This document shows positions 3,001-42,928 of a stretch of 64,000 nucleotides of DNA, in pieces. Positions within the stretch are counted from its first letter, which is position 1, and every line of letters starts with the position of its first letter. Made by a program: the position numbers and the translations under genes. The stretch spans positions 20,313-84,312 of the forward strand of contig CAIMEY010000089.1 of the NCBI GenBank assembly GCA_903840165.1, read 5' to 3'. The notes under the pieces are model-generated. The model worked only from the letters and a program-made list of their open reading frames with translations, was not told the origin of the DNA and did no database searches. This stretch comes from an uncultured Myxococcales bacterium (GTDB lineage: Bacteria; Myxococcota_A; UBA9042).

Positions 3001-6000
3001 TCGCAATGAGTACGCGGTATTGCCAAAGTGCCCGCGGACGAAAAACTGCGAGCGCAGCTCGGCTGCCAGCACATCGCCGGCCCGCAGCTCGGCCTGAACG
3101 TGGATGGTTCTACCGGTGGCGGCGTCATCGACGCGAGTTACAAAAGCGCTTGACTTCCATGCGTTTAGACCCTTGCTATACAAGCCTTGAAAGCCTGCAT
3201 GAAGGGCAATTTGCTGGTCCAGGTGAACCAGATTGAGCAAGCCCCCGGCCAGTTCGGGCGCGGCCAGCACCGAGAACATGGGCTGCCACACCAGGGAGAA
3301 GGCGTAATCCGGTGAAATCCCTTGACTTGTGCCGCCCGAGGTCAGCGCCGCGTGGGCGAGCGCCAAGGTGGGCTGGATGACAACATCGGCCTGCGCACGG
3401 AAAAACAGAGGCGTCGCCTGCAGTTGTCCGCCAAAGAGGCCAGTGCGGTAAAAGCCCAGGATGCCTTCTGCAGCCTCTGCTTGGCTGAGGTGAACGGTCC
3501 ATGTGCCGGTGTCGCCGTCGGCCAGGTCGAGGTTCCACGTCAATTGCGCTGTAGGTCCGCCGTCTTGTGCGGGCACTTGCAGTTCAACCCGAACGCGTTC
3601 GCCAATGCAAGTCAGCTCAACGGAATCAGACAATTCCGAAGATATTCTAGGCGCTTGCCAGCGTAGTCGCGCAATACTGCCGCCCTCAGCGTGGTGCAAC
3701 TCCACGGTCGCGCCCGCCTGTCCGTGCAGCAAGGCCTTCAAAGGATTGCGAATTAGGCGCCGACCTGACACCCACGCCGGGGCCAAGAGGCACGCAGCTA
3801 GGGCCGGTGAGACCTGCGCGGCAAGCCACGACTGCCACAGTTCTGCTTGAACAGACTCAGAAAATCGCAAAATCGTCTGGCCGGGCTCAGACTCAACCCG
3901 CACTCGACGGTCAAGCGGGGCATGAGCCACGACGGGCAAGCGTCGGTCCGAAGCATGAACAACAGCTGCCCCATCTGCCTGCAATTGCGCAACAATTGCC
4001 GCGTCAAAGCGCCCAAGAAGCCCAGCCACCGGTTCATCGACGCGGACACCGGCCACGGCCTCGGGCCCAGGAATCACCAGCACCTGATCTGCTGTAAACT
4101 TAGGGTGTTGGGCCTGCCACAGCGAATCCGACTTGAACCAACGGCGCACATCGGCGTCGATTACCGGAACGAAGGGCACTGGCTTGCCCGGGCGTCCGCA
4201 AACCTCGTGGAAATACAAACGATCCGCCGGATGCAGCGGTTCGGTCGCCAGCTGTGGGCAGACCGCGAGCAAACGGTCCAAGACGACCTCAGGCGCGTCA
4301 AAGTCGGCCCAATCTCGCCACACGCGCTGCACAGTCGCCTGATCCGTTTGAGCAAATCGCGCCTGGGCGCGGTCCACCAAGTCTGCCATGCGCTCGCGCC
4401 AAGACCGGTCCAGCCACGGCCCGTCTTCATACAGATCGCCCGAGCCGATGGCCGTCAATTCCTTGAAACGTTGGAGAACTTCCCACCACGTCATCTGCTG
4501 GAGTTCGCCGAAATAGGGCTTGGCCGTGGGCGCCAACGCCGCAATAATTTCGTCATGCCGCTGCCGAACGACGTCCGCCTGGCCCGCTACTTCGTCCAGG
4601 AGCCGACCGCAGCGCGATGCCGAATTGTCCAAATAGTGAATATCTGCGTTGAGTTGACTGCGCCCTGACGTGACACCGCCGCGTACTTGCCCGGCCAGCA
4701 CCCACTCCGGACTCCCTGTGGCCGCCGCCAGGGCCTTTTTGACATCTGCTGTGGCCGTCGCCTCCAAACAGGTCATCGCCAGGGTGCCGAGAAAGACCGC
4801 GTCCACCGGCATCGCCGGCAGTCCTCTTCGCAAAGACCAGGAACCAGTGAGCAATTCGACTGCACGGGCCTCCGTGGCGATACCGCCGCCGACGCACAGC
4901 ACGAGATTGGGCTGCCGACGAATCAAGTGGTACGTATCTACGAGCAATTGCTCAAGATCCTCCCAGCTGTGGTGACCTCCGGCCTTGCCGCCCTCAAGGT
5001 GCAATCCCAGCGTATGATGGCTTGCCGCCTTGGCAATTCGGATGACTTGCTCCACTTGCGCCGTCGTCCCCGGCTTGAAGGCGTTGAGCCAGATGCCGGC
5101 ATCTCGAAATTCATCAAGCAAAGCAACCGCTTCATCCACCTCCGGCAGACCGGCGCTGATGGTCACACCCGCCAGCGGCAGACCGGCGCGACGGGCCTTT
5201 TGCGCCAGTTGACCGCGCTTGACCTGCATATCCCATAGGTAAGGGTCTAAAAACAGGGCGTTTAACGTGAACTCTCGGCCCGGCTGCAACAGTTGGCTGA
5301 GTTCGTCCATCCGCTGCTGCCAGATCTTCTCAGTCACTTGGCCACCGCCGGCCAATTCTGCTGTAAATCCAGCGTTTGCGGCCGCGGCAACGATTCCGGC
5401 ATCGGCAGTGGTCGGCGTCATACCTGGCAAAATGATGGGCGATTGCCCCGTCCAGCGGCTATAGCGATTGTCGACGAGCTGGCGACCATTGGGCAACTGC
5501 AGCAAATTCGGCATAAACGCTTGGTAGTTCAGCGGCGTCTCACCGCTCGCCCCGGCCGAAAATAGACGCCGCCGTCCGACCGGCACCGCAATGGCCACCG
5601 TCTCGATGCCGCGTCCGCGCAAGTTGGCCGCAGTGAGCTTGGCCACACCGTCGCTTGGCCCCAAATCGACAATGAATTCAGGATTATGTTGCATGGCGAC
5701 CGCAGTGACGGTCTCGGTCCAGCGCACGGGCATCAGGAACTGATCCTCGACCAGCCATTGCGTCAAGTGGTTGGCATCACGCGCTTCTTGGTAGGAAGTC
5801 GCCAGAGAAGGCGAATACACCGGCAAGCGCAATTTCTGTGGATCGACGGAAAACCCAATATCAGCAATGGTTTGCCGCATCGCCGCGTGGCCCGCTTGCA
5901 TGTGCGGGCTGTGAAACGGCGCACCGACGGCGAGGTATTCCCATGTCGGCACAACGACTTTGCCAGGTCGGCGCCCTTCCTTCTTGCGTTTGAGCTCCTG

Positions 6001-6843
6001 CGCCGCCTGCGTGCTCAGCTGCTTGTCCAGGCGCTGCAAGGTCGGCACAGGACCGCTGACAACGAAGCGCTGAGCGGTGTTATACAGTGCAATTACAGCG
6101 GCTTGTCCAGGGTCAAGATTGCGATTGACCGCGTCCAAATGTGCCTGCAGTTCGCTGTCACTCAGCCCCGCAACGGCGGCCATGGGCGTGGCGTCGCCCT
6201 GGGGCCCCAGCCCTTTGCCCGACTGCGCCATGTGCAGCCCCTGCCAGATAAAATACTGCAAATACGCCAGGGTACGCGGCAGTGATACGGCAGCAGCCTC
6301 GGTACTCTCAGAAATGAGCAGCGCCGGCATCATGCCCTGCGAATGCCCGAGAACGGCAGCTATTTTTCCGGAGCGCCACACGGCGTCCAAACCGCGCTCC
6401 GCTGCGTCATTCCATCGCAAGATTTGGCAAAGAAAAATAAGCGGTTGCGAGATTTGTGACGAGGCGAGGTAACCGGCGTCTGGACGCAACTCCGCCTGCA
6501 GAATCCAGGCCCGCAGGTCGAGGCCAAAACCGTATAACCCACTGAATTGAAATACGTCTGCAGCAATCCAACCCTGCATAGCTGCACTGGCCGCCTCGAT
6601 CCACGCGCGAGCAGATGCCGATTCCTGCCATAACTCAACAAGTTCTGCGAATGCAGGCCCGCCCTGCCCGGCAAATGCGATCGCAACCCGGCGATCGCCA
6701 TGGACCAGGATCTGCAGCAAGCTCTCGAGTTCATGGGCAGAATGCGGCACACCGTGAACCAGGTGCTGCGCCAGGGGGCCTCCCACGGCCGGTGAGCTAC
6801 GTACGCCTTGAGAATTCGCGACACCAGACGATGAATGAACCAT
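1..6843 (-). CDS. fas: Type-I fatty acid synthase-like megasynthase (FAS-I architecture). The 5' 2281 codons are in the window and the 3' end runs off it.
   Basis: Absent from the ORF track because the frame stays open to the window edge. By-eye reverse-complement translation from the ATG (complement of 6841-6843) reads MVHSSSGVANSQ... with no stop seen. Motifs occur in FAS-I order: acyltransferase GHSQG (6334-6348); FMN/TIM-barrel enoyl reductase HLEGGKAGGHHSWEDL (~4954-5001); MaoC-type dehydratase GGDRNPIH (2605-2628); malonyl/palmitoyl transferase GHSVGE (1975-1992); ACP-like DGVSSRRNQ (~838-864). The KR and KS domains are expected beyond position 1. Confidence 0.85.
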   Translation of the reverse strand, partial: MVHSSSGVANSQGVRSSPAVGGPLAQHLVHGVPHSAHELESLLQILVHGDRRVAIAFAGQGGPAFAELVELWQESASARAWIEAASAAMQGWIAADVFQFSGLYGFGLDLRAWILQAELRPDAGYLASSQISQPLIFLCQILRWNDAAERGLDAVWRSGKIAAVLGHSQGMMPALLISESTEAAAVSLPRTLAYLQYFIWQGLHMAQSGKGLGPQGDATPMAAVAGLSDSELQAHLDAVNRNLDPGQAAVIALYNTAQRFVVSGPVPTLQRLDKQLSTQAAQELKRKKEGRRPGKVVVPTWEYLAVGAPFHSPHMQAGHAAMRQTIADIGFSVDPQKLRLPVYSPSLATSYQEARDANHLTQWLVEDQFLMPVRWTETVTAVAMQHNPEFIVDLGPSDGVAKLTAANLRGRGIETVAIAVPVGRRRLFSAGASGETPLNYQAFMPNLLQLPNGRQLVDNRYSRWTGQSPIILPGMTPTTADAGIVAAAANAGFTAELAGGGQVTEKIWQQRMDELSQLLQPGREFTLNALFLDPYLWDMQVKRGQLAQKARRAGLPLAGVTISAGLPEVDEAVALLDEFRDAGIWLNAFKPGTTAQVEQVIRIAKAASHHTLGLHLEGGKAGGHHSWEDLEQLLVDTYHLIRRQPNLVLCVGGGIATEARAVELLTGSWSLRRGLPAMPVDAVFLGTLAMTCLEATATADVKKALAAATGSPEWVLAGQVRGGVTSGRSQLNADIHYLDNSASRCGRLLDEVAGQADVVRQRHDEIIAALAPTAKPYFGELQQMTWWEVLQRFKELTAIGSGDLYEDGPWLDRSWRERMADLVDRAQARFAQTDQATVQRVWRDWADFDAPEVVLDRLLAVCPQLATEPLHPADRLYFHEVCGRPGKPVPFVPVIDADVRRWFKSDSLWQAQHPKFTADQVLVIPGPEAVAGVRVDEPVAGLLGRFDAAIVAQLQADGAAVVHASDRRLPVVAHAPLDRRVRVESEPGQTILRFSESVQAELWQSWLAAQVSPALAACLLAPAWVSGRRLIRNPLKALLHGQAGATVELHHAEGGSIARLRWQAPRISSELSDSVELTCIGERVRVELQVPAQDGGPTAQLTWNLDLADGDTGTWTVHLSQAEAAEGILGFYRTGLFGGQLQATPLFFRAQADVVIQPTLALAHAALTSGGTSQGISPDYAFSLVWQPMFSVLAAPELAGGLLNLVHLDQQIALHAGFQGLYSKGLNAWKSSAFVTRVDDAATGRTIHVQAELRAGDVLAAELRSQFFVRGHFGNTAYSLREHLPLEQEVFLPDAAAVSLLTEQPWLRLNTPLQPGTTLRFTGNAVREIARNNNSLTACYTTVFDGETVVGQVQWSSHDAHTVHPVTQVLSLLAPPPKTGAAVARKVLMRKADRAPLAMHAFAQAGGDRNPIHRSDTAARLAGLPGAIVHGMWTSAKAHAAIAESLAGGDVTRLTEVQAAFLAPVAPGAHLRFEVARIGAKDGQTQCECLVSALQDGQYQSVVRATASVLPPRTAYVFPGQGIQQKGMGQDGYQRSPAAKSVWDQADAFTRRELGFSILQVVRENPKEIVVSGRRWLLASGVLNLTQFTQVAMAVLAQAQVAEMREAGVLDEAAVACGHSVGEYNALAAYVGVLPLESVVEIVYQRGLAMHTLVPRDASGESGYRMGVIRPNLAGLDHAAAEALVAQVRQESGEFVQIVNYNVRNRQYSVTGRVAALAHLQRALAERTRGDRPAWVEVPGIDVPFHSEVLRDGVPAFRAVLDQRLPKTMPPERLIHRYVPNLVPLPFSLERDFIAAVHAATGSPQLLEVLRDLPAHQAQAPTLARLLLVELLAWQFASPVRWIETQEVLVAPEQSGGLGVRRLLEVGVGYQPTLANMARTSLEGNSAGVQILNAEADIQTIFLRDAAGEPADWPEVTTSIDAVEAPAAQAKAIESSAVAPLPIQAAAAQPSRGTVAVTDVGPDVARSLRSLLALQARVRPDQLRDQETIDELFDGVSSRRNQVLLDITSEFEAGAMDGAHEKPLSALTAELAKRAGTYQAPGRYLRAAQDEAIKKLFARSGWTRKELAGHLTDTWNLAAPAQAHVFDFLAVEGRDGQSGRGGALGTVAVAPAANKAEAVQRIDQFVTAIAAERGWSLGGAAASSSGAAMAVDAAVVAALEAKIAGPDGALMQSVRALAANLGHDLSPVPRVSEVDPQAEQLAILAQEFGTNLADLVRPAFDARKHVGFSSTWSFAQRDLWRLWLDAVHDRVSQADLAQGIQRLAAHGQDPRVRDTARFCAD
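2820..2831 (+). repeat. TTGTATAGCAAG motif copy inside the FAS-I gene
   Basis: Exact 11-mer at 2821-2831, followed by the AT-rich CCGTTAAGCTATTGTTATTCC. Confidence 0.8.
3172..3184 (-). repeat. CTTGTATAGCAAG motif copy (reverse orientation) inside the FAS-I gene
   Basis: The + strand reads CTTGCTATACAAG. This is the only minus-orientation exact copy. Confidence 0.8.
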
Positions 6844-7068: not shown

Positions 7069-9459
7069 TCATAGCCGCATGCGCAAGAGTTCTTCTGGAT
7101 CCGACTTGCATAAGTTCGCAAACTGCATGGACATTTCACCTCGAGCGACCTTCCCCGGTCCCGTGCGCGCCAATGGCTCTGGACAAAACCGCCATATCAA
7201 CGGGCGCTTGTAGGGGGCCACCCGCCCCAGAGCCTGCTCGAGCAAGGGCCAGCACTGCTCCGGCCGCAGCGCAGTGACTAGCCAGGCGCCGACAATCTGC
7301 CCGCGCTCAAAGTCCGGCACGCCGCAGACAATCGCCTCGTCAATGCCAGGGATGCCTATCAAAACCGTTTCAATTTCTTGAGGATAGATGTTCTCGCCGC
7401 CGCTGATGATGATGTCGCTTCGCCTCGCTGCGATCGTAAGCGCGCCACCTTGTAAGTTCGCCCAGTCGCCCGTGTCCAGCCAACCATGGCCAACCTCAGA
7501 TTCTGGCTGCACTTCTTCTCCAGGCAGTTGCGCGTAGCCCGTCATTGATTGCCAGGTGTGCGCGATCAGCCGGCCATACCCATCGTTATCAGGTTGGTCA
7601 ATGCGCAGTTGGACGCCAAGCAGGGGGTGAAGCGTGTTGTCGGCCACGCCGGTAATCGCCACCTGCGCGCAAGTCTCTGTTTGGCCGTAGGTTTGCCTTA
7701 GGGGCAGTCCACGACGGCGGCCCTCGTCAAGCCACTCAGGCGGCACGGGCCCTCCGCCCACCAGCACGCAGCGCAGCGGAGAGTCGATAACATCTTTTGA
7801 TTGTTGGAGAAATCGTTGCAGTTGCAGGCCGACGATGGACGCCTGGGTGAGGGCAAAGCGCTCGCTCAAAGTATGTATAGCAAGCCCTGAACTACCTGAA
7901 CTTACAACCAAAGTTCCGACACCGACCGCCGCACGCGCCGCCACCATCAGCCCGCCCACGTGGCACAGGGGCAGAGGGCACAGCCATACATCATCCGCCG
8001 TGGCCCCGACCGCATCCAGGCTCGCCGCGACTGCATACCAAAGGCTAAAGTGACTAATTCGACACAGTTTTTGCCGACCAGTGGTCCCTGACGTCGGCAG
8101 CCAGAGTGCGTCGGCCGTCGCGTCCATGGCCGGCATGACATAGGAAATCGGCGAGGGTTCAAGCTGTTCGGGAGCAATGACGAGACCGTGGGCATGTGGG
8201 TGTCGCCGGTCGGTCAACAAGACCCGGGGACGCGTTCGCGCCAGTAATTCGTCTACTTCTGCTGTAGTTGCGCGGGGATGGATGGGCAGCCACACCGCCC
8301 CGAGTCGCCATGCCGCCCATTGTGCGGGCAGCAGCAACGCCGCATCATCGGCCCAAGCTGCCACGATTTCGCCAGCTAACACGCCGGCTTGACTGATCAA
8401 TCGAGCGATCGCATGGCCTTGTGCATCTAGCTGCTTCCAGGTCCAATCGATGTTGCGGTCGGCGTCGCGCAGCGCCAAACGGTCAGGCTGATACCGCGCG
8501 GCCCGGGCAAGCCCGTCGGACATTCGCCACATCATTTGCAATGTCGGCAGGTTATCAGACATGCGCAGCTGCCCTGCGGGCTGTCCCGGCACCCCAAGAC
8601 CACATGCGCGCAACCTCCCAGGCGCGACCGCCGCCAGCGCGTGCAGGGCGCTGCGACCAACCGGCCCATCAAAGAGCGAACTAATGACAAGGTCACAGGA
8701 AAGCTTGGACAAGGCTTGGGCAAACTGGAGAAATCGGCCAATCGACCCGAGCAAAGCGGGCTTGACGACCGCCACCGCCACGGCACCTCGAGCGGCGAGG
8801 GCAAGCACAGATTCTGGCGAACTATCAAGGAGATCAGCAGCGAGGGGCACGGCGCTTGAATTCGGCCAGTCCGCTACGGCCGTCGGGTCCTCTACATATT
8901 CAACGCCTTGCGCTGCCTCAAGGAGGGCCGCCAGATCAGCAGGCGGTCGTCCCTGCCAGCCGCCGTTGACGTCAAGCCGCAATTGCAGGCCGTTGGCACG
9001 AACCATCGCAACAAATTCAGCAAGTTCTTTGGGATCGGCGCTGGTCCACTTGACCTTGACGTGGCGATCCCCCGCGGCTGCCAGGGACGCCCAAATCGCG
9101 GGGTCGAAGGTTGCTGCCACGACGGTCTGAGCGACAACCTCTGGACGCGGTGGCACCGTACTATCCGGATATTGCAGATGAAGCCACTGGGCAAGGCCCA
9201 TGTTGGCCTGACACGCCTGCAGAGCATGAAGCGCAACGTCCCGGGCAAAGGCAACGATTGTGGCGTGGTGTCTGGAATCACGAGGCAAGTCAGGCGCTTC
9301 GCCGGCGCAGAGGTGAATGCCGTCGCTCACCAAGTGCAGATCGCTTCCCGTAGATCCCGTTTCTCCACGGCTACTTGCAAGCAGCGCCCCTTCGCCGTGC
9401 CAACGCTGCGCGGGCAACCAGGTAACCTGTGGCGCGTCAGGCCCGACTAGCACAGCCAC
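7069..9459 (-). CDS. menE: Fusion of an o-succinylbenzoate synthase-like enolase-superfamily domain (MenC) with o-succinylbenzoate-CoA ligase (MenE)
   Basis: 796-aa ORF. The N-terminal ~300 aa carry KVKW, LRLDVNGGW, VEYVEDP and VVKP, as in MenC/MLE-type enzymes. The C-terminal ~490 aa carry the AMP-binding motifs LPTSGTTGRQK, TYGQTE, GWLDTGD and SGGENIYPQEIE. No stop codon lies between the two halves. Confidence 0.8.
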   Translation of the reverse strand: MAVLVGPDAPQVTWLPAQRWHGEGALLASSRGETGSTGSDLHLVSDGIHLCAGEAPDLPRDSRHHATIVAFARDVALHALQACQANMGLAQWLHLQYPDSTVPPRPEVVAQTVVAATFDPAIWASLAAAGDRHVKVKWTSADPKELAEFVAMVRANGLQLRLDVNGGWQGRPPADLAALLEAAQGVEYVEDPTAVADWPNSSAVPLAADLLDSSPESVLALAARGAVAVAVVKPALLGSIGRFLQFAQALSKLSCDLVISSLFDGPVGRSALHALAAVAPGRLRACGLGVPGQPAGQLRMSDNLPTLQMMWRMSDGLARAARYQPDRLALRDADRNIDWTWKQLDAQGHAIARLISQAGVLAGEIVAAWADDAALLLPAQWAAWRLGAVWLPIHPRATTAEVDELLARTRPRVLLTDRRHPHAHGLVIAPEQLEPSPISYVMPAMDATADALWLPTSGTTGRQKLCRISHFSLWYAVAASLDAVGATADDVWLCPLPLCHVGGLMVAARAAVGVGTLVVSSGSSGLAIHTLSERFALTQASIVGLQLQRFLQQSKDVIDSPLRCVLVGGGPVPPEWLDEGRRRGLPLRQTYGQTETCAQVAITGVADNTLHPLLGVQLRIDQPDNDGYGRLIAHTWQSMTGYAQLPGEEVQPESEVGHGWLDTGDWANLQGGALTIAARRSDIIISGGENIYPQEIETVLIGIPGIDEAIVCGVPDFERGQIVGAWLVTALRPEQCWPLLEQALGRVAPYKRPLIWRFCPEPLARTGPGKVARGEMSMQFANLCKSDPEELLRMRL
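7874..7916 (+). repeat. TGTATAGCAAG motif copy plus hairpin inside the menC/menE gene
   Basis: Exact 11-mer at 7874-7884. Direct repeat CCTGAACT at 7886-7893 and 7895-7902. Inverted repeat GAACTT-N7-AAGTTC at 7898-7916. Confidence 0.75.
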
Positions 9460-13336: not shown

Positions 13337-13360
13337 TCGCGAAATTACAGCGAATTTTCC

Positions 13361-13395
13361 TTGTATAGCAAGCCTTTAACTGCTTGTTCCTCAAG
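13361..13395 (+). repeat. TTGTATAGCAAG motif copy plus hairpin in a convergent intergenic region
   Basis: Exact 11-mer at 13362-13372, with a CTTG-TTCCT-CAAG hairpin at 13383-13395. Confidence 0.75.
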
Positions 13396-13443
13396 GAATT
13401 AATCCGAAGCCCCTTGATTTCCCTCAGCAATTCCGCTACCTGA

Positions 13444-24751: not shown

Positions 24752-24801
24752 GCCAATTCCTGCGGTGCTTGCCGCCCGGGCTGGCGGAAAATGCCCATCG
24801 C

Positions 24802-24820
24802 GGGCTTGTATAGCAAGCCC
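24802..24820 (-). terminator. Perfect 7-bp stem-loop GGGCTTG-TATAG-CAAGCCC abutting the glmU stop codon. It contains the 11-mer and is a candidate terminator or processing hairpin.
   Basis: Inverted repeat at 24802-24808 / 24814-24820. The glmU stop is the complement of 24821-24823. There is no U-tract on the minus strand, but the + strand has T-rich sequence downstream. Confidence 0.35.
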
Positions 24821-26239
24821 TTAATCTTTTGATTTCTTTCGCTTTTCATCGTCGCGCACCTGTTTTCGCGCCACCCAGCCTTCGATGGCCCGCTGCGGTG
24901 TCCGACTCAGCGCCAAGGCTCCTGCAGGTACGTCCTGCGTGATCGTGCTGCCCGCGCCGACGTAGGCCCCTTGGCCAACGGTGACCGGGGCTACCAGTTG
25001 CGAATCGCTGCCGATGAAGACGTCGGCCCCTAGGGTCGTGCGGTACTTGAATACCCCGTCGTAATTGCAGGTAATTGTCCCGGCACCGATGTTGCAGTTT
25101 GCGCCGATGTCGGCGTCGCCCAGGTACGACAAGTGGCTGGCCTTGGCCCCCGGCCCCAAGTTCGCCTTCTTGGTCTCGACAAAATTCCCAACCTTAACGC
25201 GCTCTTGCAGCACAGTCCCTGGACGCAAGTGGGCAAAGGGTCCGACATGGGCACCCGCGCCAATGGACGCCTCGGTTGCCACGGTATAGGGCAGGACGTG
25301 GGCCCCCGCCGCCACGGTGACGTCGGTCAGGACACAGCCACGATCGATGCGCGCCCCGGCCTCAATCTGCGTATTTCCGCGGAGTTCCACATCCATCCCC
25401 AGAGAGCAATCGGCCGCCAACTGCACGGTCGGTTCGATCCAGACGGCGTCCGCGTCGTCCATGCCCACCCCAGCGTGGAGGTGCGCCAGGGCCACCCGAT
25501 TGCGCAAGACGGTAGTCAATGCCGCCAGCTCAGCCCGGGAATTGACACCAGAAACTTCCATATTGTCATCAACTTGAAGCGCCACACCGCCTTGCCCCTG
25601 CGCCGCAGCCAGGGCGACCAAATCGGTCAGGTACAACTCGCCCTGGGCATTGTTCGGCTGGAGCTGGGTCAGCGTGTTCGCCAAGAAATCCGCGGATACA
25701 GCCATCATTCCGGCGTTGACGATGCGCAGTTGCCGCTCCGCCTCGGAGGCGTCCTTGTGCTCGACAACGCCCAGCATGTGCTGCCCGTCAGGGTGCAGCG
25801 CGACTCGGCCATATCCTGTAGGATCAGGCAGTTGCGCGACCAGGAGCGCCAATGGTGCCTTCTGCCGTACGGCCAGCAACGCGTCCAGAGTCTGCCAACG
25901 CAAAAGCGGAACATCCCCATAAAGAATCAAGACTTGCTCAGCATCCTGCCAGCCTTCCCGCGCGCACAGCACAGCGTGCCCGGTGCCATTGGGATTGGGC
26001 TGCTCGAGACAAACCGCTTGAGCCTGGTTGACTTGGGCCCACTGTGCCACGTAGGCCTGCACCGCCTCGCGACCGTGGCCCGTGACGACCACCATGCGTT
26101 TGGGCTGTAATTGCAAGGCTGTATTGAGTACGTGCCCCAACATCGGCGTCCCCAGCAGAGGGTGCAACACCTTGGGCAACGCGCTGTGCATGCGCTTGCC
26201 TTGGCCGGCCGCCAAGATCACCACAACGAGTCCAGACAT
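24821..26239 (-). CDS. glmU: Bifunctional UDP-N-acetylglucosamine pyrophosphorylase / GlcN-1-P acetyltransferase
   Basis: N-terminal VVILAAGQGKRMHSALPKVLHPL, with C-terminal left-handed beta-helix hexapeptide repeats. Confidence 0.93.
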   Translation of the reverse strand: MSGLVVVILAAGQGKRMHSALPKVLHPLLGTPMLGHVLNTALQLQPKRMVVVTGHGREAVQAYVAQWAQVNQAQAVCLEQPNPNGTGHAVLCAREGWQDAEQVLILYGDVPLLRWQTLDALLAVRQKAPLALLVAQLPDPTGYGRVALHPDGQHMLGVVEHKDASEAERQLRIVNAGMMAVSADFLANTLTQLQPNNAQGELYLTDLVALAAAQGQGGVALQVDDNMEVSGVNSRAELAALTTVLRNRVALAHLHAGVGMDDADAVWIEPTVQLAADCSLGMDVELRGNTQIEAGARIDRGCVLTDVTVAAGAHVLPYTVATEASIGAGAHVGPFAHLRPGTVLQERVKVGNFVETKKANLGPGAKASHLSYLGDADIGANCNIGAGTITCNYDGVFKYRTTLGADVFIGSDSQLVAPVTVGQGAYVGAGSTITQDVPAGALALSRTPQRAIEGWVARKQVRDDEKRKKSKD

Positions 26240-27726: not shown

Positions 27727-29067
27727 ATGCAGGTGGCACTGTTCGCAGATCGGTTTGAAGGCTGGTTAGCTTCTGATTTTGAAGCCTTTTCACCAGCCAA
27801 CTGGAGCTCGAACCGCTTCAACCGTCCTCGGTCTGCGGTTCGCGATCGATTGTTGTCCCTGCTCGAACAGAGCACAAAGACAGCCAATTTGCCCGCCCTA
27901 GGCCTAACGCTGTGGGCTTCGCGCGCCGACCCAAGTCTGATCAACAACCACAAGGTATCTCGACTTCGCGCTGTTATTACACGTAGTTCCGAGCGTCGCG
28001 CCGAATTGGAAGCCGCGCAGTCCCAACTCGATGCGACGCAAGTGGACCGCTTTGGTGCCTGGCTGGGCCTAGAAGTCGACCACGAGCGCGTTCTTGTTCA
28101 GCTTTCGGTTCCGGCTGAGGCGGCGATCGACCGCGAGTCCCTGCCCTCGCACCTCGGACTGCTGCCGAGCCTGAGCGATGGTGAACATCTGCGCCATGGC
28201 GAAACTGCTGTAGATTTAGGGGTTTGGCTGGACGCCTTGGCCCAGACGGAGGCCCCAGTCGACCTAGCCCTGGCGTGGATCCTGCCCCTCGATCAGGCCC
28301 TGCAAGGATCTGGAACTGCTGAAGAAGTCCGTAGATTTGTCGAGAAGATGCTGCCCGCCTTGGTGGCTGTGATCGGCGGTGATCCAGCGGCCATTGTGTG
28401 GGAATCCGCGGAACATTCTGAATCTACGGCGAATTCTTCTGAATCGGCGATGGCCGAATTGAGCGGCGACGGCCAAAAAGAGGCTTGTATAGCAACGAGC
28501 CAAGCCCCCAATCAGAATGACGAATTTCGTCCAGCCACCCCAATTGCCCCACCGCGGCGCCCTGGGTCCTACCGGCCGGCCTTTGCCCCGGCGCGTCCCA
28601 CGGCCGTTCCCGCCGATCGGGCACCGATCGAGCGCATTGTGCCACCCACCTGGAGGCCAGAAACCACTGATATCGGTCGGCAATTGCGTCAGGCGCACGA
28701 GGAACGCGACCGCCAACAAGCGCGAAGCTACCCGCCGGCCGCGCCGCAACGACCGCAATCGCCTGACCGAGGACCGCGCCCGCAGCCTCCTACCCAGGAG
28801 GGACGTTCGAATAACTACCAGTCTTCACAGACGAAATCGGGCGGTTTTCCCGATCGCCGTGGCAGTGGTCGGCCCTTTGAACTCGGCCCCGATCCAAAGG
28901 CGGGCCAAGCCGTGACCACGTTGGCTCCCGGCGCTCGCGTGCGCATGCAGGCGGGGCTTTGGCTGGGCAAGGAAGGGGTAGTCGTTGAAATCAAAGGCGA
29001 TACCGTGCATGTCCAGCTGGGCGCCCTCACCGTCAAGGTGCCCAAGTCGGGCGTGGCGCTCGCCTGA
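27727..29067 (+). CDS. Hypothetical protein: unknown N-terminal domain, Pro/Arg-rich linker, KOW/SH3-like C-terminus
   Basis: 446-aa ORF with coding-like composition. The C-terminal GARVRMQAGLWLGKEGVVVEIKGDTVHVQLGALTVKV resembles the KOW-like element of MutS2-type proteins. I recognise no family for the remainder. Confidence 0.6.
   Translation: MQVALFADRFEGWLASDFEAFSPANWSSNRFNRPRSAVRDRLLSLLEQSTKTANLPALGLTLWASRADPSLINNHKVSRLRAVITRSSERRAELEAAQSQLDATQVDRFGAWLGLEVDHERVLVQLSVPAEAAIDRESLPSHLGLLPSLSDGEHLRHGETAVDLGVWLDALAQTEAPVDLALAWILPLDQALQGSGTAEEVRRFVEKMLPALVAVIGGDPAAIVWESAEHSESTANSSESAMAELSGDGQKEACIATSQAPNQNDEFRPATPIAPPRRPGSYRPAFAPARPTAVPADRAPIERIVPPTWRPETTDIGRQLRQAHEERDRQQARSYPPAAPQRPQSPDRGPRPQPPTQEGRSNNYQSSQTKSGGFPDRRGSGRPFELGPDPKAGQAVTTLAPGARVRMQAGLWLGKEGVVVEIKGDTVHVQLGALTVKVPKSGVALA
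28486..28531 (+). repeat. One-mismatch motif copy (TGTATAGCAAC) plus hairpin inside the ORF at 27727-29067
   Basis: Motif at 28486-28496, with the palindrome GACGAATTTCGTC at 28519-28531. Confidence 0.6.
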
Positions 29068-34324: not shown

Positions 34325-34378
34325 AACCGGTGCAATTCTGGGTTTCGCGACATAGTGAGGCGTCAACTTAGCGATATT

Positions 34379-35090: not shown

Positions 35091-35361
35091 GGGCGCCACC
35101 CAGGCCTGATTTTCCCTTTTTGCCGGATGCGGTGTCCATAGATTTGCACTGTGATCGCGCACAGGAGCGCGCCTGATGCTGATTGCCCTGACCAAATCCT
35201 CGCAAATGAAGGTCGACCAAGACCAGGCAGTTCTGCGACCAATCGCAGCCGCAACCGCGAGCCGCCGGGGGAATCTGCATTGCGTTGCCGCGCTGACTTT
35301 GACAGCGCTACCACTGGACAACGGCTTGGAAATTGAGGCACAAGGGGATGCCTTTGCCGCC

Positions 35362-36705: not shown

Positions 36706-36750
36706 CGCCGTCGGAACGGTCACCGTCGGAACGGTCGCCGTCGGAACAAA
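36706..36750 (+). repeat. Three tandem 15-bp units CRCCGTCGGAACGGT between the anti-sigma gene and the Spy-like gene
   Basis: Units at 36706-36720, 36721-36735 and 36736-36750. The last unit ends in AAA instead of GGT. Confidence 0.85.
36714..36736 (+). promoter_or_regulatory. Candidate ECF-type promoter (GAAC-N16-GTC) upstream of the Spy-like gene
   Basis: GGAAC at 36713-36717, a 16-nt spacer, then GTC at 36734-36736. It lies ~75 nt upstream of the ATG at 36811 and sits within the tandem repeats. Confidence 0.28.
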
Positions 36751-36810: not shown

Positions 36811-37422
36811 ATGCGCTCAATTTCAATAGCTTGCTGGCCCCTCTTGATCACGTTGGGGTTGCCGGCCTTGGCCTTTGGCCAGGCTCCACCGCTTGCACCA
36901 CCGGCCGCCCACAGCGCTCCCGCCGCGACGACGCCAGCTCGCCCCGGTCCTGCCCCGGCAAAACCACTTGATCCCAAACGGCAATCACAGACGCCTCAGC
37001 AGATTCGCGAAACGATGCACCAGAGCATTCGCGCGTGGCGCAAGCAGCGCCTGGCCGACGTGGTGCAACCCGATGCACCGACAGCCTTGAAGATCCAGGA
37101 TATTTTGGACCAACACGCCATTCAGACCATGGCATTGGGCGATGAGCTGCGCAAAACGAAAGCCGAACTGACGCGCCAACTCAAGTTGCCAGCCCCAGAC
37201 CTCGCGTTGCTGACCCGGCTCACGGACCAACTGCTGGCCGTGCAGGCCAAAATCGCCAAGGTGGAAGAGGACCGAAGCACGGCCGTGCGTAAAGTCCTTA
37301 CTCCCGTTCAGTTTTCCCGTTATCTGATTGCGTGGCCCAAGATCAACCGGCAAATCCAGGAAAAGATCTACCAGGCGCTGGCCAAGATCGGTGACCGGAC
37401 GGGGACGCGCGACGAGTTTTAG
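36811..37422 (+). CDS. Periplasmic Spy/CpxP-like (LTXXQ-motif) protein
   Basis: Signal peptide MRSISIACWPLLITLGLPALAFGQ, a helical Q/K/L-rich body, and LTPVQFSRYL (LTXXQ). Confidence 0.5.
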   Translation: MRSISIACWPLLITLGLPALAFGQAPPLAPPAAHSAPAATTPARPGPAPAKPLDPKRQSQTPQQIRETMHQSIRAWRKQRLADVVQPDAPTALKIQDILDQHAIQTMALGDELRKTKAELTRQLKLPAPDLALLTRLTDQLLAVQAKIAKVEEDRSTAVRKVLTPVQFSRYLIAWPKINRQIQEKIYQALAKIGDRTGTRDEF

Positions 37423-37436
37423 CCGCCAATTAGGCA

Positions 37437-37483
37437 TGTATAGCAAGGGTCTATCGCCTCGTTCTGAAACACGAATCTGCGAC
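37437..37483 (+). repeat. Copy 1 of a ~47-nt repeat starting with TGTATAGCAAG (possible small RNA or regulatory element)
   Basis: TGTATAGCAAGGGTCTATCGCCTCGTTCTGAAACACGAATCTGCGAC. Internal hairpin TCGT/ACGA at 37459-37474. Confidence 0.7.
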
Positions 37484-37582
37484 GCTGACGCCCTGACACC
37501 TCGCCCAAACTGCCCTGCTCGATGACGCAACGGGTACGAGGGGCTAGGCCAACCGCTCGGTGAATTGGCACCCAATCACGCG

Positions 37583-37629
37583 TGTATAGCAAGGCTCTAT
37601 CACCGTGTTCTAAAACGGGAATCTGCGAC
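37583..37629 (+). repeat. Copy 2 of the ~47-nt repeat
   Basis: TGTATAGCAAGGCTCTATCACCGTGTTCTAAAACGGGAATCTGCGAC, about 40/47 identical to copy 1. Its hairpin CCGT/ACGG (37603-37618) is at the same offset with compensatory changes. Confidence 0.7.
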
Positions 37630-37751
37630 CGACATCCTCCCGCGACCCCTCAGCCCGTCGCCGCCCAGGGACCTGTCGGCAAGATGCTTGTCGGTAACTT
37701 CGCCGCGGGCCTGAGCGGTGAGTCGAGCGCCAATTCGCCGCCAGAGGGCCT

Positions 37752-37788
37752 TGTACACCAAAGGTCTATCCCCTTGTTTTCTTAGGGG
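37752..37788 (+). repeat. Copy 3 (degenerate) of the repeat; its hairpin overlaps the stop codon of the Cys-rich gene
   Basis: TGTACACCAAAGGTCTATCCCCTTGTTTTCTTAGGGG. Hairpin CCCCT/AGGGG (37770-37788) at the equivalent offset. Confidence 0.55.
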
Positions 37789-40700
37789 CATCCGCCCTTG
37801 CCAACGCAGGCCGGGTCAGCACAATCCACTTTGCCATTGCCGTTGTCGTCGAGGTTGTTGCCGCAAATCTCCGGCCCAAACTGCAAGGTGACCGCCACAT
37901 CGTCGATGAACCAGCCTTTGCCTTGATTGCCCTGGTTGGTCGGAGCTTGCAGGCTAAATTCCATGCGAAAACGGTGTCCGGCCACCTTGGGCACGTCCAA
38001 ATCGATGGACCGCCACAGGCTCTGGCACGGACCGCTGCACGCACTGGTCGATTTGGACAGGGTAAACTGGTCGAGCACGGCATTGGTGTCCACGTCCCTC
38101 AGGACGACCAAGGGTAAGTCCTGGTCCACAGTGCCAAATCCGGTTCCACCAGGCAGGGGGCCATCCAGCGCGTAGTAGGTCGCAAACGCCAGGTGCGGCA
38201 TGGCTACCTTGGCTGTCAGGTCAATGGTGGGCGACTTGGCCACCAAGACCGGCGGCAAAAGGCAATAAATACCGACCTGTTGATCACAGTAGTTCAGACC
38301 GTTGTTGTAGTTCATCGTGCAGCCATGCTTGTCGGCATCCGGCGTGACCGGCGTCTGGTCCACGGCCCACAGTACCTTGTAGCCAGCCGGAGCGGTGACA
38401 GACCAGTCCTTTACGCCGGCGTCACAGGCAAAACCCTCTGAATACCAAGTGCATTCTTCCTGGGTTGGCGTACACAGTCCACCTTGGCAAGCACTGCTGA
38501 GGGTGCACGCCAAGCCGTCGTCACACGCACTGCCCTCCGGCGCCGGGGCGTGAGTGCAAGCACCTGATTTTACCTGGCAATTATCGACCGTGCACGGATT
38601 GCCGTCATCGCAAGGGCTCTGGCTGCCACCGTTGCAACTGCCTTTGGCGTCACAAGTATCGCCCAATGTGCACGGATTGGCGTCATCACAAGGTCCAATC
38701 TTCGCAACGTGCGTGCACAGCCCGGTGACTGCGTCGCAAGCATCCGTCGTGCACCCGTTCCCGTCGTCGCAGCCCCCGTTTGCCGCCGAGCCGCCACAGT
38801 TGCCCGCTGTGCAGTGGTCGCCGCTGGTGCAGGCGTTACCGTCATCGCAGGGCACATTGGCGCTCTGGGGAACATGCTGACAAAGGCCTGATTTTCCTTC
38901 ACAACTGTCGACGGTACAGCCATTGCCATCTTCGCAGTTCTTGGGACTGCCCGCGCCGCAACTGCCGCCCACGCAACTATCGCCGCTGGTGCAGGCATTG
39001 CCGTCGTCGCAGGTACCGCCCTGGGCCTTGGCCACGCACAGGCCCGTAGTGCTGTCGCAGGAATCCTCGGTGCACGGATTGCCGTCATTGCACGCGGCGT
39101 TGACGGCGCCCTGACAAGCGCCGCCGCTGCAGTGGTCACCGCTGCTGCACGCATTGTAGTCGTCGCAGGCGCTGCCGTTATTCTTGTGGCTACACCCGGC
39201 CTTGGCTGAACACACGTCGTCCGTGCATGGATTGGCGTCGCTACAGTCCTTGGCGGTCCCGGGCAGACACTTGCCGGATTTGCAATGGTCGCCGGTCGTA
39301 CAAAGGCTACCGTCCTCACAACTTGCTGTATTTGCAACCCATTGGCACCCAGTTTGCGGGCTGCAACCATCGTCGGTGCAGGGATTGTCGTCGCTGCAGT
39401 CGGTCTTTGTCCCTGCTACGCAACTGCCTTTGTTGCATGTGGAATTATCCGAGCATGCATCGCCATCGCCACAGCCACTGCCGTCAGGTAGCAGTGATGT
39501 CACGCAACCTTGCCCAGGTACGCACCAATCCTGCGTGCAGGGGTTGTTGTCGTCGCACCCGGCCACGCCGCTCCCTTGGCACTGCCCGGCTTGGCACTGG
39601 CCCAACTCGCAGACTTTGTCAAGTAAGCATTTGTTTTGATTGGGCAAATACTGGCAACCGCTGGCCGGCACACATGCGTCGGTGGTGCATGGATTGCCGT
39701 CGTCGCAGGTCGTCACGGCACCGGGCAAGCACACGCCTTGGCTGCAAGAGTCGCCGAGCGTGCATTTGGACCCATCCTCGCAAGGCCCTGTTACAGCGAA
39801 GAATTGGCAAGCGCCCGTGGCCTCGTCGCAGCTGTCTTGGCTGCAGGGGTTGGCGTCGGCGCAGACCTTGGCTGGGCCGGCTTTGCACACGCCATTGGCG
39901 CAGATGTCTCCAATCGTACAGGACTTTCCGTCCTGGCATGGCCCGACTGTGGGCACAAACTGGCAAATGCCGGTGCTCGGGTTGCAGGCATCGCTCGTGC
40001 ACGGATTGGCATCGTCGCAACTCGTTGAATTTCCCTGAATGCAGGCGCCTTGGCTGCATTGCCCGGGGGCCGCGCACAACTGGCCCAAGCCGCAGGGTCC
40101 AAGGGTCGGCTGATGGATGCAACCGCCTACAGGCAAACAGGTATCGCTGGTGCACTCGTTGCCGTCGTCACAGTCCAACAGCCCGGCAGCCGCCTGACAA
40201 CTGCCGCCACTGCACGCATCGCCCACCGTACACGCGTTGTTGTCATTGCAGGGCGCAGCGTTATTGCTGTGGAAGCAACCGAGGTTAGAAGCGCAGCTGT
40301 CCTCCGTGCAAGGATTGGCGTCTGTGCAATCCTTGATCGTCCCGAGGCATTGGCCCTGCACGCAGGCGTCGTCCGAGCTGCACGCGTCGCCATCCTCGCA
40401 CGGCGATCCGTCCGCTTTGGCCACCTGCTGACATTGGCCCTGGGCGCAAATGGACTGCCAACACGGCTTGGCAACAGGACATTGCGCTTGATTCTGGCAG
40501 TCTTCACCGCCGTCAGCCTCGCCATCTGCCTTTGTCGCATCCGCCGCGTCCCCGTCCGCCTGCGCATCCGGCTCAGCCTGCTCGTCCATTTCGTCTTTAT
40601 CTTCCAGATCTTGCCCTAGCGCGTCAGCCGAATCGGTGGCCACCAGGGTGTCGACGTCGTCCGGCTGTGTGGCCAGTTCTTGGTCCGGCCCGGCAAAGTC

Positions 40701-40940
40701 AGCAAACACCGCATCGGACGATTGTGCTTCTGAAACAAGGGCATCGGTGGACGCAGGCCCAGCATCGGCAGCCACCGTCGGCGCATCGCCCAGCGTCACC
40801 AGGGCATCGGGCGAACAGCCCCAAAGCAGCGCGGGAGCGAGGACAAACGTCACAAAAGCACGGGCAAATTGCGGCCATCGCCTCCTGCGATTAGGACAGG
40901 TCTCCCCGGCACCGATTGAATTGTGCGCCGCACTAGCCAT
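37782..40940 (-). CDS. Large secreted or lipid-anchored protein with ~20 Myxococcus-type cysteine-rich repeats and a C-terminal jelly-roll-like domain
   Basis: 1052 aa. It has an LLWGCSP lipobox-like N-terminus and an acidic linker. About twenty D-x-N-x-C-T-x-D-x-C / C-x-D-G-x-x-C-T-x-G-D-x-C units follow. The tail ends with CGNNLDDNGNGKVDCADPAC. Confidence 0.85.
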   Translation of the reverse strand: MASAAHNSIGAGETCPNRRRRWPQFARAFVTFVLAPALLWGCSPDALVTLGDAPTVAADAGPASTDALVSEAQSSDAVFADFAGPDQELATQPDDVDTLVATDSADALGQDLEDKDEMDEQAEPDAQADGDAADATKADGEADGGEDCQNQAQCPVAKPCWQSICAQGQCQQVAKADGSPCEDGDACSSDDACVQGQCLGTIKDCTDANPCTEDSCASNLGCFHSNNAAPCNDNNACTVGDACSGGSCQAAAGLLDCDDGNECTSDTCLPVGGCIHQPTLGPCGLGQLCAAPGQCSQGACIQGNSTSCDDANPCTSDACNPSTGICQFVPTVGPCQDGKSCTIGDICANGVCKAGPAKVCADANPCSQDSCDEATGACQFFAVTGPCEDGSKCTLGDSCSQGVCLPGAVTTCDDGNPCTTDACVPASGCQYLPNQNKCLLDKVCELGQCQAGQCQGSGVAGCDDNNPCTQDWCVPGQGCVTSLLPDGSGCGDGDACSDNSTCNKGSCVAGTKTDCSDDNPCTDDGCSPQTGCQWVANTASCEDGSLCTTGDHCKSGKCLPGTAKDCSDANPCTDDVCSAKAGCSHKNNGSACDDYNACSSGDHCSGGACQGAVNAACNDGNPCTEDSCDSTTGLCVAKAQGGTCDDGNACTSGDSCVGGSCGAGSPKNCEDGNGCTVDSCEGKSGLCQHVPQSANVPCDDGNACTSGDHCTAGNCGGSAANGGCDDGNGCTTDACDAVTGLCTHVAKIGPCDDANPCTLGDTCDAKGSCNGGSQSPCDDGNPCTVDNCQVKSGACTHAPAPEGSACDDGLACTLSSACQGGLCTPTQEECTWYSEGFACDAGVKDWSVTAPAGYKVLWAVDQTPVTPDADKHGCTMNYNNGLNYCDQQVGIYCLLPPVLVAKSPTIDLTAKVAMPHLAFATYYALDGPLPGGTGFGTVDQDLPLVVLRDVDTNAVLDQFTLSKSTSACSGPCQSLWRSIDLDVPKVAGHRFRMEFSLQAPTNQGNQGKGWFIDDVAVTLQFGPEICGNNLDDNGNGKVDCADPACVGKGGCP

Positions 40941-41794: not shown

Positions 41795-42928
41795 CTAGGC
41801 CACGTCAAAGTCGACGCTCATGCTACCGCCATAGCCCGCCAAATCCTGCGGCCCGCCGTCATCGGAACTTTGGGCGGAATTCGCTGTCTGGCAGCGCGCT
41901 TGCACGGTATGTGCCCCAGTCGTAACGATCAGGTCCAGGTGCCACAGCACCCAAATGTCGGCACCGGGCGCGTAGTCCAACACCGCGTTTTGCCAAGGCC
42001 CTTGGTCCAGGCGAACCTGAACCTGCTCAACCGCATCGCTCCCCGCATAAGCCGTTCCGTAGACCTTGAGCGATCCGGGCGGCGTCGTTCCCAGGGCCAG
42101 CGGACGGGCGATCAGGGTCTGGGGGCGGTAGACAGCCGTGTCCGACCAGCCCGCCTTTTCCCAGAACCCGAGGTAAGGCGTATCGATAAACTCCATGCTG
42201 GTCAGCCACTTCGGATTCTTCATGCCGTAGCGGCCCGGATTGAGCAGGCGCACCGGAAAGCCGTGCTCGGGCGGAATTGCCTGCCCATTCATCAGCCATA
42301 CCAGCCACATCGGCTTCTGCAGGTCCGAAACTGGTACTGCCGTAGTATAGCCATCGGCACAGGTGAACTTGAGCGACAGCGCGCTTGGCGGCACGGCAAT
42401 GCCGATCGAGGCCATTACCTCAAGCAGAGGCACGCCAGTCCAAATTGCGTTGGAAATCGCTTGGTTCAGCGGCCCTGCACTAATGCACTCCAGGGTGTGC
42501 TCCTTGGTCTTGGCCGGCAACTTGAGCAGCTGCCCCATACCGAATTGTCCAAGTGTTTTACCGCGGTCCAGTACTTGTACCTGCCAGGCGCTGGCGTCGA
42601 TGGCCGGGGATCCGCAGCAGCTCGTCACGTAGTGCAAATTGGCCGGCGTGATGGCAGAAATCGGTTGTATATCAGGCAGTGAAGTGTCTGTAATTTCAAC
42701 GGAATCCAGGACACTGCCAGCGTCAGCCGTCTGCGAGGGCGCAACCGCCAAGCTGTCCACTTCGCCGCTCTGAGCGTCGGCACCTAGATTACCTCCCGAA
42801 TCAGAAGGTTGCGCATCGGGCAGTGCCTGCTGGCTGGCCTTGAGCGCTGGTGCACAAGCCGCAGTGAGGGCGGCCCCGCTCAAAATCATTAGAAGATCTC
42901 GGCGTTTGACGGTGCCTCTTGCGCTCAT
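41795..42928 (-). CDS. Molybdopterin-dependent oxidoreductase (sulfite oxidase / MsrP-like fold), Tat-exported
   Basis: Twin-arginine signal KRRDLLMILSGAALTAAC. Also ECISAGP...WTGVPL and HGFPVRLLNPGRYGMKNPKWL. Confidence 0.75.
   Translation of the reverse strand: MSARGTVKRRDLLMILSGAALTAACAPALKASQQALPDAQPSDSGGNLGADAQSGEVDSLAVAPSQTADAGSVLDSVEITDTSLPDIQPISAITPANLHYVTSCCGSPAIDASAWQVQVLDRGKTLGQFGMGQLLKLPAKTKEHTLECISAGPLNQAISNAIWTGVPLLEVMASIGIAVPPSALSLKFTCADGYTTAVPVSDLQKPMWLVWLMNGQAIPPEHGFPVRLLNPGRYGMKNPKWLTSMEFIDTPYLGFWEKAGWSDTAVYRPQTLIARPLALGTTPPGSLKVYGTAYAGSDAVEQVQVRLDQGPWQNAVLDYAPGADIWVLWHLDLIVTTGAHTVQARCQTANSAQSSDDGGPQDLAGYGGSMSVDFDVA

Follow-up and report, generated by a model that had tools for sequence, protein, structure and literature searches.

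A 64,000-nt stretch of DNA (contig CAIMEY010000089.1 of assembly GCA_903840165.1, positions 20,313 to 84,312; hereafter the window) carries a family of undescribed, lineage-specific short interspersed DNA elements, and three repeats located in one of its convergent intergenic spacers are a local cluster of this family. The elements share an 11-bp core word, TGTATAGCAAG, which is the most over-represented 11-mer of the window: seven exact cores were found (2821, 7874, 13362, 24807, 37437 and 37583 on the plus strand and 3182 on the minus strand), where about 0.03 is expected from the window size. Two further cores, at 37752 and 42666, are degenerate, and one more, at 28486, is doubtful; all three are on the plus strand. 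The copy counts, strand ratios and densities reported here all derive from this single window, with about 10 copies in 7 independent loci. As to function, we tentatively favour a reading that we hold possible rather than probable, namely that a protein would read the element on duplex DNA as a recognition word specific to the species. In anatomy, uptake signal sequences are its nearest counterpart.

The spacer (37423-37781, 359 nt) has on its left a Spy/CpxP-like gene (36811-37422, plus strand), whose homologues are named Spy/CpxP family or match PF13801 and which is the last gene of an extracytoplasmic function (ECF) sigma factor/zf-HC2 anti-sigma factor operon. On its right lies the gene of a Cys-rich Dicty_CTDC-repeat protein (37782-40940, minus strand; stop codon at 37782-37784). 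An earlier note on this DNA, made from the sequence by a model, had placed repeats at 37437, 37583 and 37752, 146 and 169 nt apart in a 359-nt spacer; a repeat finder and the gene calls gave exactly these positions and distances, with the three copies arranged as direct repeats. The element, put at about 47 nt in that note, measures 65 nt instead, since the conserved unit begins 18 nt upstream of the core and conservation ends about 47 nt after it. Copy 1 (37419-37483, plus strand, core at 37437-37447), which serves as the reference copy and scores 40.6 bits with a position weight matrix (PWM), has its left end at the Spy/CpxP-like stop codon. Copy 2 (37565-37629, plus strand, core at 37583-37593, 41.4 bits) shows 80% identity to copy 1. 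Copy 3 (37734-37798, plus strand, 38.1 bits) has the degenerate core TGTACACCAAA at 37752-37762, shows 63% identity to copy 1 and 60% to copy 2, and overlaps the stop codon of the Cys-rich gene. Copies 1 and 2 were said to share sequence and then to diverge, and this is what we observed: the similarity runs through GAATCTGCGAC, and the DNA between the spacer copies is unrelated beyond that point (local alignment, p=0.68 versus shuffles). The unrelated inter-copy DNA rules out a tandem duplication of whole units.

The word recurs well away from the spacer. A further copy reported near 13.4 kb is indeed present (core 13362), and the family proved to be larger, with additional exact cores at 2821, 3182, 7874 and 24807 and the degenerate one at 42666. 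A 19-mer pattern allowing up to 3 mismatches gave 5 matches versus 0.01 expected, and a 29-nt pattern gave 7 versus 0.00 expected. The PWM scan was bimodal, with eight copies at 36-46 bits and one at 19.8 bits, all remaining positions at or below 13.1 bits, and a shuffle maximum of 14.4 bits. Shorter sub-words of the core (6-8 nt) showed no enrichment beyond the full copies. The extended consensus reads (c)(t)TGTATAGCAAG-SNNY-TAW-N5-YTGTT, and two flank subfamilies can be distinguished, GCAAG-CCNTTAA and GCAAG-GNTCTA. Conservation of the core is asymmetric, and the 11-bp word is invariant in the exact copies. The density amounts to about 1 word per 7 kb. Nine of the ten copies lie on the plus strand (6:1 when counted by independent loci), a bias that is only marginally significant. 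The GC skew is negative over nearly the entire window and the minus strand carries most genes of the first 27 kb, so the polarities of replication and transcription are not separable here.

All three intergenic loci are found at gene 3' ends, one of them being the Spy-like/Cys-rich spacer. Another is the 107-nt convergent spacer between a HupE/UreJ gene (plus strand) and an RNase T-like exonuclease gene (minus strand), whose copy (13342-13408, plus strand, core 13362-13372) obtains the top score of 45.8 bits and holds two CTTG-N5-CAAG palindromes. The third is a 69-nt spacer that separates glmU from a CxxCxxCC gene (both on the minus strand); its copy (24787-24853, plus strand, core 24807-24817, 42.9 bits) overlaps the glmU stop codon and forms the perfect palindrome GGGCTTG-TATAG-CAAGCCC. 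The convergent spacer between a Ser/Thr kinase gene and a DUF423 gene (34325-34378), which has 48% G+C and a GAAACC...GGTTTC hairpin, is devoid of the word, indicating that it is not carried by every convergent spacer.

Around the core extends a footprint of about 60 bp. Averaged with one copy per locus, A/T-rich patches appear at about -18, -7, +2, +15, +27 and +38 in all loci, including the copies that lie inside open reading frames (ORFs). These patches best fit a period of 11.25 bp; in 3000 column permutations, a power as high as the observed one never occurred (p<0.001). The A/T content is 54% within the footprint versus 33% outside, for a background of 61% G+C.

Four of the roughly ten copies (2821, 3182, 7874 and 42666) lie inside ORFs, all of which are intact and conserved. 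Two are located in a giant ORF of the minus strand resembling type I fatty acid synthases (FAS-I), which has no stop across 2281 codons. The first (2801-2867, plus strand, core 2821-2831) is antisense to the ORF and coincides with a variable loop showing a 2-amino acid (aa) indel versus homologues. The second (3136-3202, minus strand, core 3182-3172), in sense orientation and the sole minus-oriented copy, likewise falls in a variable loop, with a 3-aa indel, and is identical to copy 1 at 17 of 17 nt. Another copy (7854-7920, plus strand, core 7874-7884) is antisense to a MenC-MenE fusion ORF of the minus strand, whose MenE half aligns through the word site to Bacillus subtilis MenE (PDB 5x8f) with no insertion. 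A degenerate copy (42646-42712, plus strand, 19.8 bits), with TGTATATCAGG at 42666, lies in a molybdopterin oxidoreductase ORF (minus strand). The lack of insertion in MenE, together with indels of only 2-3 aa at the FAS-I-like sites, is better explained by point substitution than by insertion of an element. In the 62-bp footprints within ORFs, the G+C content at third codon positions (GC3) is 0.32-0.48 versus 0.65-0.69 for the host genes (0.32 for the 7874 copy versus 0.65 for MenC-MenE), and each of these values belongs to the lowest 1-11% of same-size segments within its gene.

As for the host genes themselves, the FAS-I-like ORF (1-6843, minus strand) is part of a giant fungal/CMN-type ORF of 3352 aa in the source gene call, with best homologues in metagenome-assembled genomes of Myxococcota and Mycobacterium (33-56% identity). 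Its two copies are mutually inverted and 361 nt apart, so that its mRNA carries two perfectly complementary 11-mers. The MenC-MenE gene (7069-9201, minus strand) is a single ORF fusing an o-succinylbenzoate synthase-like domain (MR_MLE_C) with MenE (2-succinylbenzoate-CoA ligase), and the menaquinone-type cluster to which it belongs also includes UbiA and a gene of the enoyl-CoA hydratase family.

The earlier note had interpreted the spacer repeats as carrying a covarying hairpin at the same offset in each copy and had proposed them as a candidate small RNA (sRNA) family. On an ungapped alignment of 47 columns, the stems fall into different registers: columns 23-26/35-38 in copy 1, 21-24/33-36 in copy 2, 19-23/33-37 in copy 3 and 22-25/31-34 in the 13362 copy. 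Because the stems occupy different columns, the changes are not compensatory in homologous pairs. When either stem was imposed on eight copies, 59% and 47% of the cells were paired, which is not above shuffled or slid controls. RNAalifold found no consensus pair on the plus strand of the copies and, on the minus strand, only a weak CAAG/CTTG helix (-1.9 kcal/mol) with a positive covariation term. The minimum free energies of the 47-mers versus dinucleotide shuffles gave z-scores from +0.88 to -1.42, so that no copy outdid its shuffles in folding, and a perfect 4-bp stem with a loop of 3-10 nt occurs in 29% of random 24-mers drawn from the window. The GTTC or TTC described as a feature of the hairpin loops belongs to a conserved sequence block, YGTTY, which stays at the fixed offset 23-27 independently of the stem. 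Short stems spotted by eye in three related copies thus do not amount to covariation.

Searches for known RNAs agree with this result. Rfam gave no match over the whole window at gathering thresholds and, when ranked by E-value over 37300-37900, only chance matches (E-values of 0.8 and 8.4); a tRNA/tmRNA scan of the window found none. No sigma-70 consensus promoter or intrinsic terminator overlapped the three spacer copies, the promoter scan being confined to these copies and to a consensus that may suit the host poorly, as planctomycete promoters are little known. The proposal that the element is a structured RNA rather than a protein-coding repeat therefore holds in its second half only: the repeated element is non-coding, and neither covariation nor an Rfam match speaks for a structured RNA. 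The sRNA candidate finds no positive support either, given the empty promoter and terminator scan at the copies, the end of conservation some 47 nt past the core and the presence of the word within intact ORFs. The spacer repeats are not a structured sRNA family and should not be listed as an sRNA candidate.

An analogy with sigma-E-dependent sRNAs, offered as speculation, had also been drawn from the vicinity of the ECF operon; it is not supported. The cluster does adjoin an operon of ECF sigma, anti-sigma and periplasmic chaperone-like genes, which is the feature shared with sRNAs of the MicA, RybB or MicL type. However, the adjacent ECF gene has its own, different promoter-like motif, TTTTCCYTTTTTG-N9-GTGTC (also written TTTTCCCTTTTTG-N9-GTGTC), which precedes it by about 40 nt, at 35110-35136 on the plus strand. 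This motif does not resemble the repeat, occurs once in the window and is conserved in four lineages, and it also stands upstream of the orthologous ECF genes of three distant relatives (L042, L046 and L049); it is probably an autoregulated ECF promoter. A scan of the window found no such motif upstream of the spacer repeats, which, in contrast to sigma-E/ECF sRNAs, possess neither the conserved ECF promoter motif nor an intrinsic terminator nor a conserved structure, and whose word also occurs in ORFs.

The family was also sought in other genomes. Gene content and the best named matches, from Fimbriiglobus and Gemmata, assign the window to the metagenome-assembled genome of a Gemmataceae-like planctomycete from lake metagenomes; the nearest relatives in any collection show 54-68% protein identity and 65-68% G+C. 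At the orthologous loci of these relatives, neither the word nor any analogous A/T-rich word was found. When the genomes of 185,579 species, the JGI metagenomes and IMG/VR were scanned for the pattern, all that emerged were isolated chance matches in unrelated taxa, and matching contigs from other samples are 99.98% identical to the window. In the literature, the exact word was found only within a Leptospira SOS box and in unrelated primers, and searches on Planctomycete promoter motifs, interspersed repeats and LexA-binding motifs yielded no description of it. Judged by these comparisons, the word family is lineage-specific. At the spacer itself, two relatives (L042:10648-12500 and L049:10858-12691) carry PSCyt1-like and Cu2_monoox_C genes between the Spy-like and Cys-rich genes, no remnants of which were detected in the window; both genes have been lost from it. 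Synteny with relatives is not kept at the RNase T-like locus, and the Spy-like protein has no relative among GTDB genomes.

The exactness and discreteness of the word, its phased footprint of about 60 bp, its persistence in conserved ORFs through substitution instead of insertion and despite a codon cost, its enrichment at gene 3' ends, its lineage specificity and the lack of RNA structure together argue for a signal on duplex DNA. In the mechanism that we envisage, a sequence-specific protein would recognize the 11-bp core on duplex DNA, which could bend or wrap around this protein thanks to the phased A/T patches. Selection or a conversion-type drive would maintain the word, as is the case for uptake signal sequences or Chi-like words, and the word would thus persist in genes, at tolerant protein loops and at a cost in codon usage, while its intergenic copies would gather at gene 3' ends. 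The 359-bp spacer would then represent three separately maintained sites about 150 bp apart. Protein binding and the effect of binding are the parts of this reading that we infer.

Among known systems, the DNA uptake sequences (DUS) of Neisseria and the uptake signal sequences (USS) of Pasteurellaceae come closest. Both rely on an exact, species-specific core word occurring far above chance, lie inside ORFs at tolerant positions without disrupting them, and show a relative enrichment between genes, at their 3' ends. In the window, too, the exact word is over-represented in ORFs as well as in intergenic DNA. The USS is about 29 bp long, with an extended consensus and helically phased A/T-rich flanks, and the word described here is similarly phased. 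The resemblance has limits, since our word occurs about once per 7 kb instead of once per kb and is nearly one-stranded (9:1) and arranged as direct repeats, whereas DUS and USS are about equally distributed on both strands and form inverted terminator pairs; the strand equality, the inverted pairs and the density of DUS/USS are thus all missing from this small sample. We know of no competence or uptake bias in Planctomycetes.

Repetitive extragenic palindromic sequences (REP) and bacterial interspersed mosaic elements (BIME) are likewise short, interspersed and lineage-specific, cluster in tandem at operon ends and in convergent spacers, and are thought to act via DNA-binding proteins such as gyrase and integration host factor (IHF). 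However, REPs are extragenic by definition, whereas four of our roughly ten copies lie in ORFs, and REPs are stable imperfect palindromes of about 35 nt, whereas here only the 24807 copy has a 7-bp stem, the others having 2-5 bp. No REP-associated tyrosine transposase (RAYT) was seen within the 64-kb window. Chi and the FtsK-orienting polar sequences (KOPS) are strand-biased words present about once per 5-12 kb in coding and non-coding DNA and read on DNA by translocating enzymes, Chi varying between lineages. Yet they are only 5-8 nt long, have no phased footprint of 60 bp, do not fall into flank subfamilies and do not cluster between genes, so that our word falls outside such short words; moreover, its strand bias is based on 7 loci in a window without ori or ter. 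A last resemblance concerns the Leptospira LexA1 SOS box, TTTG-N5-CAAA, of which the recA box is TTTGCTATACAAA (PMC3789691). The reverse complement of the core with the common left flank reads CTTGCTATACAAG, which has 11 of 13 positions in common with the recA box and shares its 4-5-4 palindromic layout. Unlike in that box, the left arm is kept in only about half of the copies and the spacer TATAG is invariant; the copies are asymmetric, lie at gene 3' ends and in ORFs rather than at promoters of repair genes, and are far too dense for an SOS regulon. We therefore treat the likeness of CTTGCTATACAAG to the Leptospira box TTTGCTATACAAA as a lead only.

Several points weigh against a protein-read word. 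The reader protein is postulated purely from the DNA and its binding is a prediction. Genome-wide over-representation is extrapolated from 64 kb, with about 10 copies at 7 loci. The strand bias is marginal (9:1 by copies, 6:1 by loci) and confounded with the polarities of replication and transcription, and the column-permutation null of the periodicity test is lenient. The flank subfamilies and the all-or-none identity of the core could come from copying of a master element instead, and the footprint of RNA polymerase is likewise about 60 bp with phased A/T patches, so that a promoter could also account for it. A more specific version, in which the word would be a self-recognition signal on the DNA of a Gemmataceae-like planctomycete (uptake-signal-like or Chi-like), seems decidedly improbable; such a signal would have an origin separate from those of Neisseriaceae and Pasteurellaceae, selection or a conversion drive would have introduced it into genes, and its reader would be a protein particular to the lineage that wraps about 60 bp. 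If the protein-read word is real, it would be a new kind of genomic word, with an exact 11-bp core in a 60-bp phased footprint, kept even in conserved enzymes at a codon cost; to our knowledge, no interspersed signal sequences have been described in Planctomycetes. Such words mark readers of whole chromosomes, involved in DNA uptake, recombination hotspots, chromosome organization or topology control, and discovery of the reader protein would open one such system.

Two alternatives would make the element part of a transcript or its start. That each copy is a promoter for a specialized sigma factor, driving short sRNAs or antisense RNAs, is unlikely but credible. The core is TATA-like, the A/T-rich phased footprint of about 60 bp has the extent of that of RNA polymerase, the 65-nt block would extend, relative to a putative start site, from about -55 to +12, and the cluster adjoins an ECF sigma operon. 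Read on the plus strand, the element resembles TGTATA-N17-YGTTYT and the A/T patches ahead of it recall an UP element, but the position equivalent to the critical A-11 is an invariant G; read on the minus strand, rGAACA-N17-(TGC)TATACA offers an ECF-like -35 and an extended -10-like element, but the 'AAC' block is the least conserved part of the element. Neither orientation yields a coherent -35/-10 pair, and the very fact that both can look promoter-like makes the match a weak one. The sigma-70 consensus scan, limited to the three spacer copies, was empty, and the neighbouring ECF gene, as seen above, has a different promoter-like motif, single in the window and shared by four lineages. Furthermore, no terminators follow the copies, the putative transcripts are unconserved past about +12, transcription from most copies would start within ORFs or run antisense into genes, and a regulon would not be expected to have about one site per 7 kb, each identical at 11/11 positions. 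Quite unlikely, in turn, is an RNA cis-element on minus-strand transcripts, ...AACA-N4-S-WUA-RNNS-CUUGCUAUACA, acting as a site for an RNA-binding protein or RNase in 3' untranslated regions, intercistronic regions and coding sequence. Eight of the nine PWM-scored copies are sense for a minus-strand transcription unit (three after the Cys-rich stop, one after the RNase T-like gene, one 3 nt past the glmU stop and three in minus-strand ORFs), and the weak consensus CAAG/CTTG helix is predicted on that strand. This helix, however, reaches just -1.9 kcal/mol and its covariation term is positive, the terminator scan found no hairpin followed by a U-tract, and the 3182 copy would be antisense. The orientation is also confounded with replication direction, as the GC skew is negative over nearly the whole window and most genes in its first 27 kb are minus-stranded, and an A/T phasing of 11 bp across 60 bp characterizes duplex DNA rather than RNA.

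The remaining alternatives concern the origin or coding content of the unit. A decaying small non-autonomous mobile element, similar to miniature inverted-repeat transposable elements (MITE) or short interspersed nuclear elements (SINE) and inserted three times in the spacer and elsewhere, would account for 65-nt blocks sharply bounded amid unrelated DNA, for the all-or-none core identity with two flank subfamilies, for the 17/17 nt shared by the 3182 copy and copy 1, and for the lineage specificity; the spacer is moreover rearranged DNA, because relatives carry two genes there. We consider it as doubtful as the RNA cis-element, for the unit boundaries show no terminal inverted repeats or target-site duplications, the ORF copies contain no element-length insertion (none in MenE, 2-3 aa at the FAS-I-like sites), the window shows neither a full-length parent element nor a transposase, and no copy was found in the public collections scanned. 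Least probable by far is a family of mini-ORFs, in which NTG-TAT-AGC-AAG would encode M-Y-S-K-(G/A/P)-L-(S/T)-(P/A)-C..., the upstream A-rich patch marking a start without Shine-Dalgarno sequence. The base before TG is never C, so that all 10 copies open with ATG, GTG or TTG; in this frame, the three core changes of copy 3 are two synonymous and one conservative, the aligned codons vary (Pro as CCT/CCC/CCG, Ser as TCG/TCA/TCC/AGC), and the ratio of nonsynonymous to synonymous changes (pN/pS) is 0.53 versus 0.94 and 1.02 in the other two. Against it, the lengths are 5, 5, 8, 11, 13, 20, 29, 46 and 67 aa and the tails are unrelated, a search of 1.84 billion representatives gave no homologue of the 67-aa ORF, no source calls a gene in the spacer, several copies would be antisense within essential-looking ORFs, and the nucleotide identity of the first four codons exceeds what selection on protein would need. 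Sigma-54 promoters, integron attC sites, dif/Xer sites, IHF sites, Tn7 or Mu ends and T7-like promoters, compared by eye with consensus sequences, were discarded as spacing or key bases did not fit.

Two other recurrent words of the window are G+C-rich and show no similarity in their flanks: CAAAGCGGGGC, found five times (36747 and 43667 on the plus strand; 22413, 49875 and 55156 on the minus strand), and GCGCTGCCTCAA, found four times (8910 and 22508 on the plus strand; 10716 and 44898 on the minus strand). These recurrences may be codon-usage artefacts or further short signals. Finally, the 148-nt spacer between the anti-sigma and Spy-like genes contains a 15-nt tandem repeat, CCGTCGGAACGGTCA, in 2.7 copies with 96% matches (36708-36747, plus strand), which includes GGAAC, resembling an ECF -35 element, and is followed by the GC-rich hairpin GGGGCAACAGCCCC.

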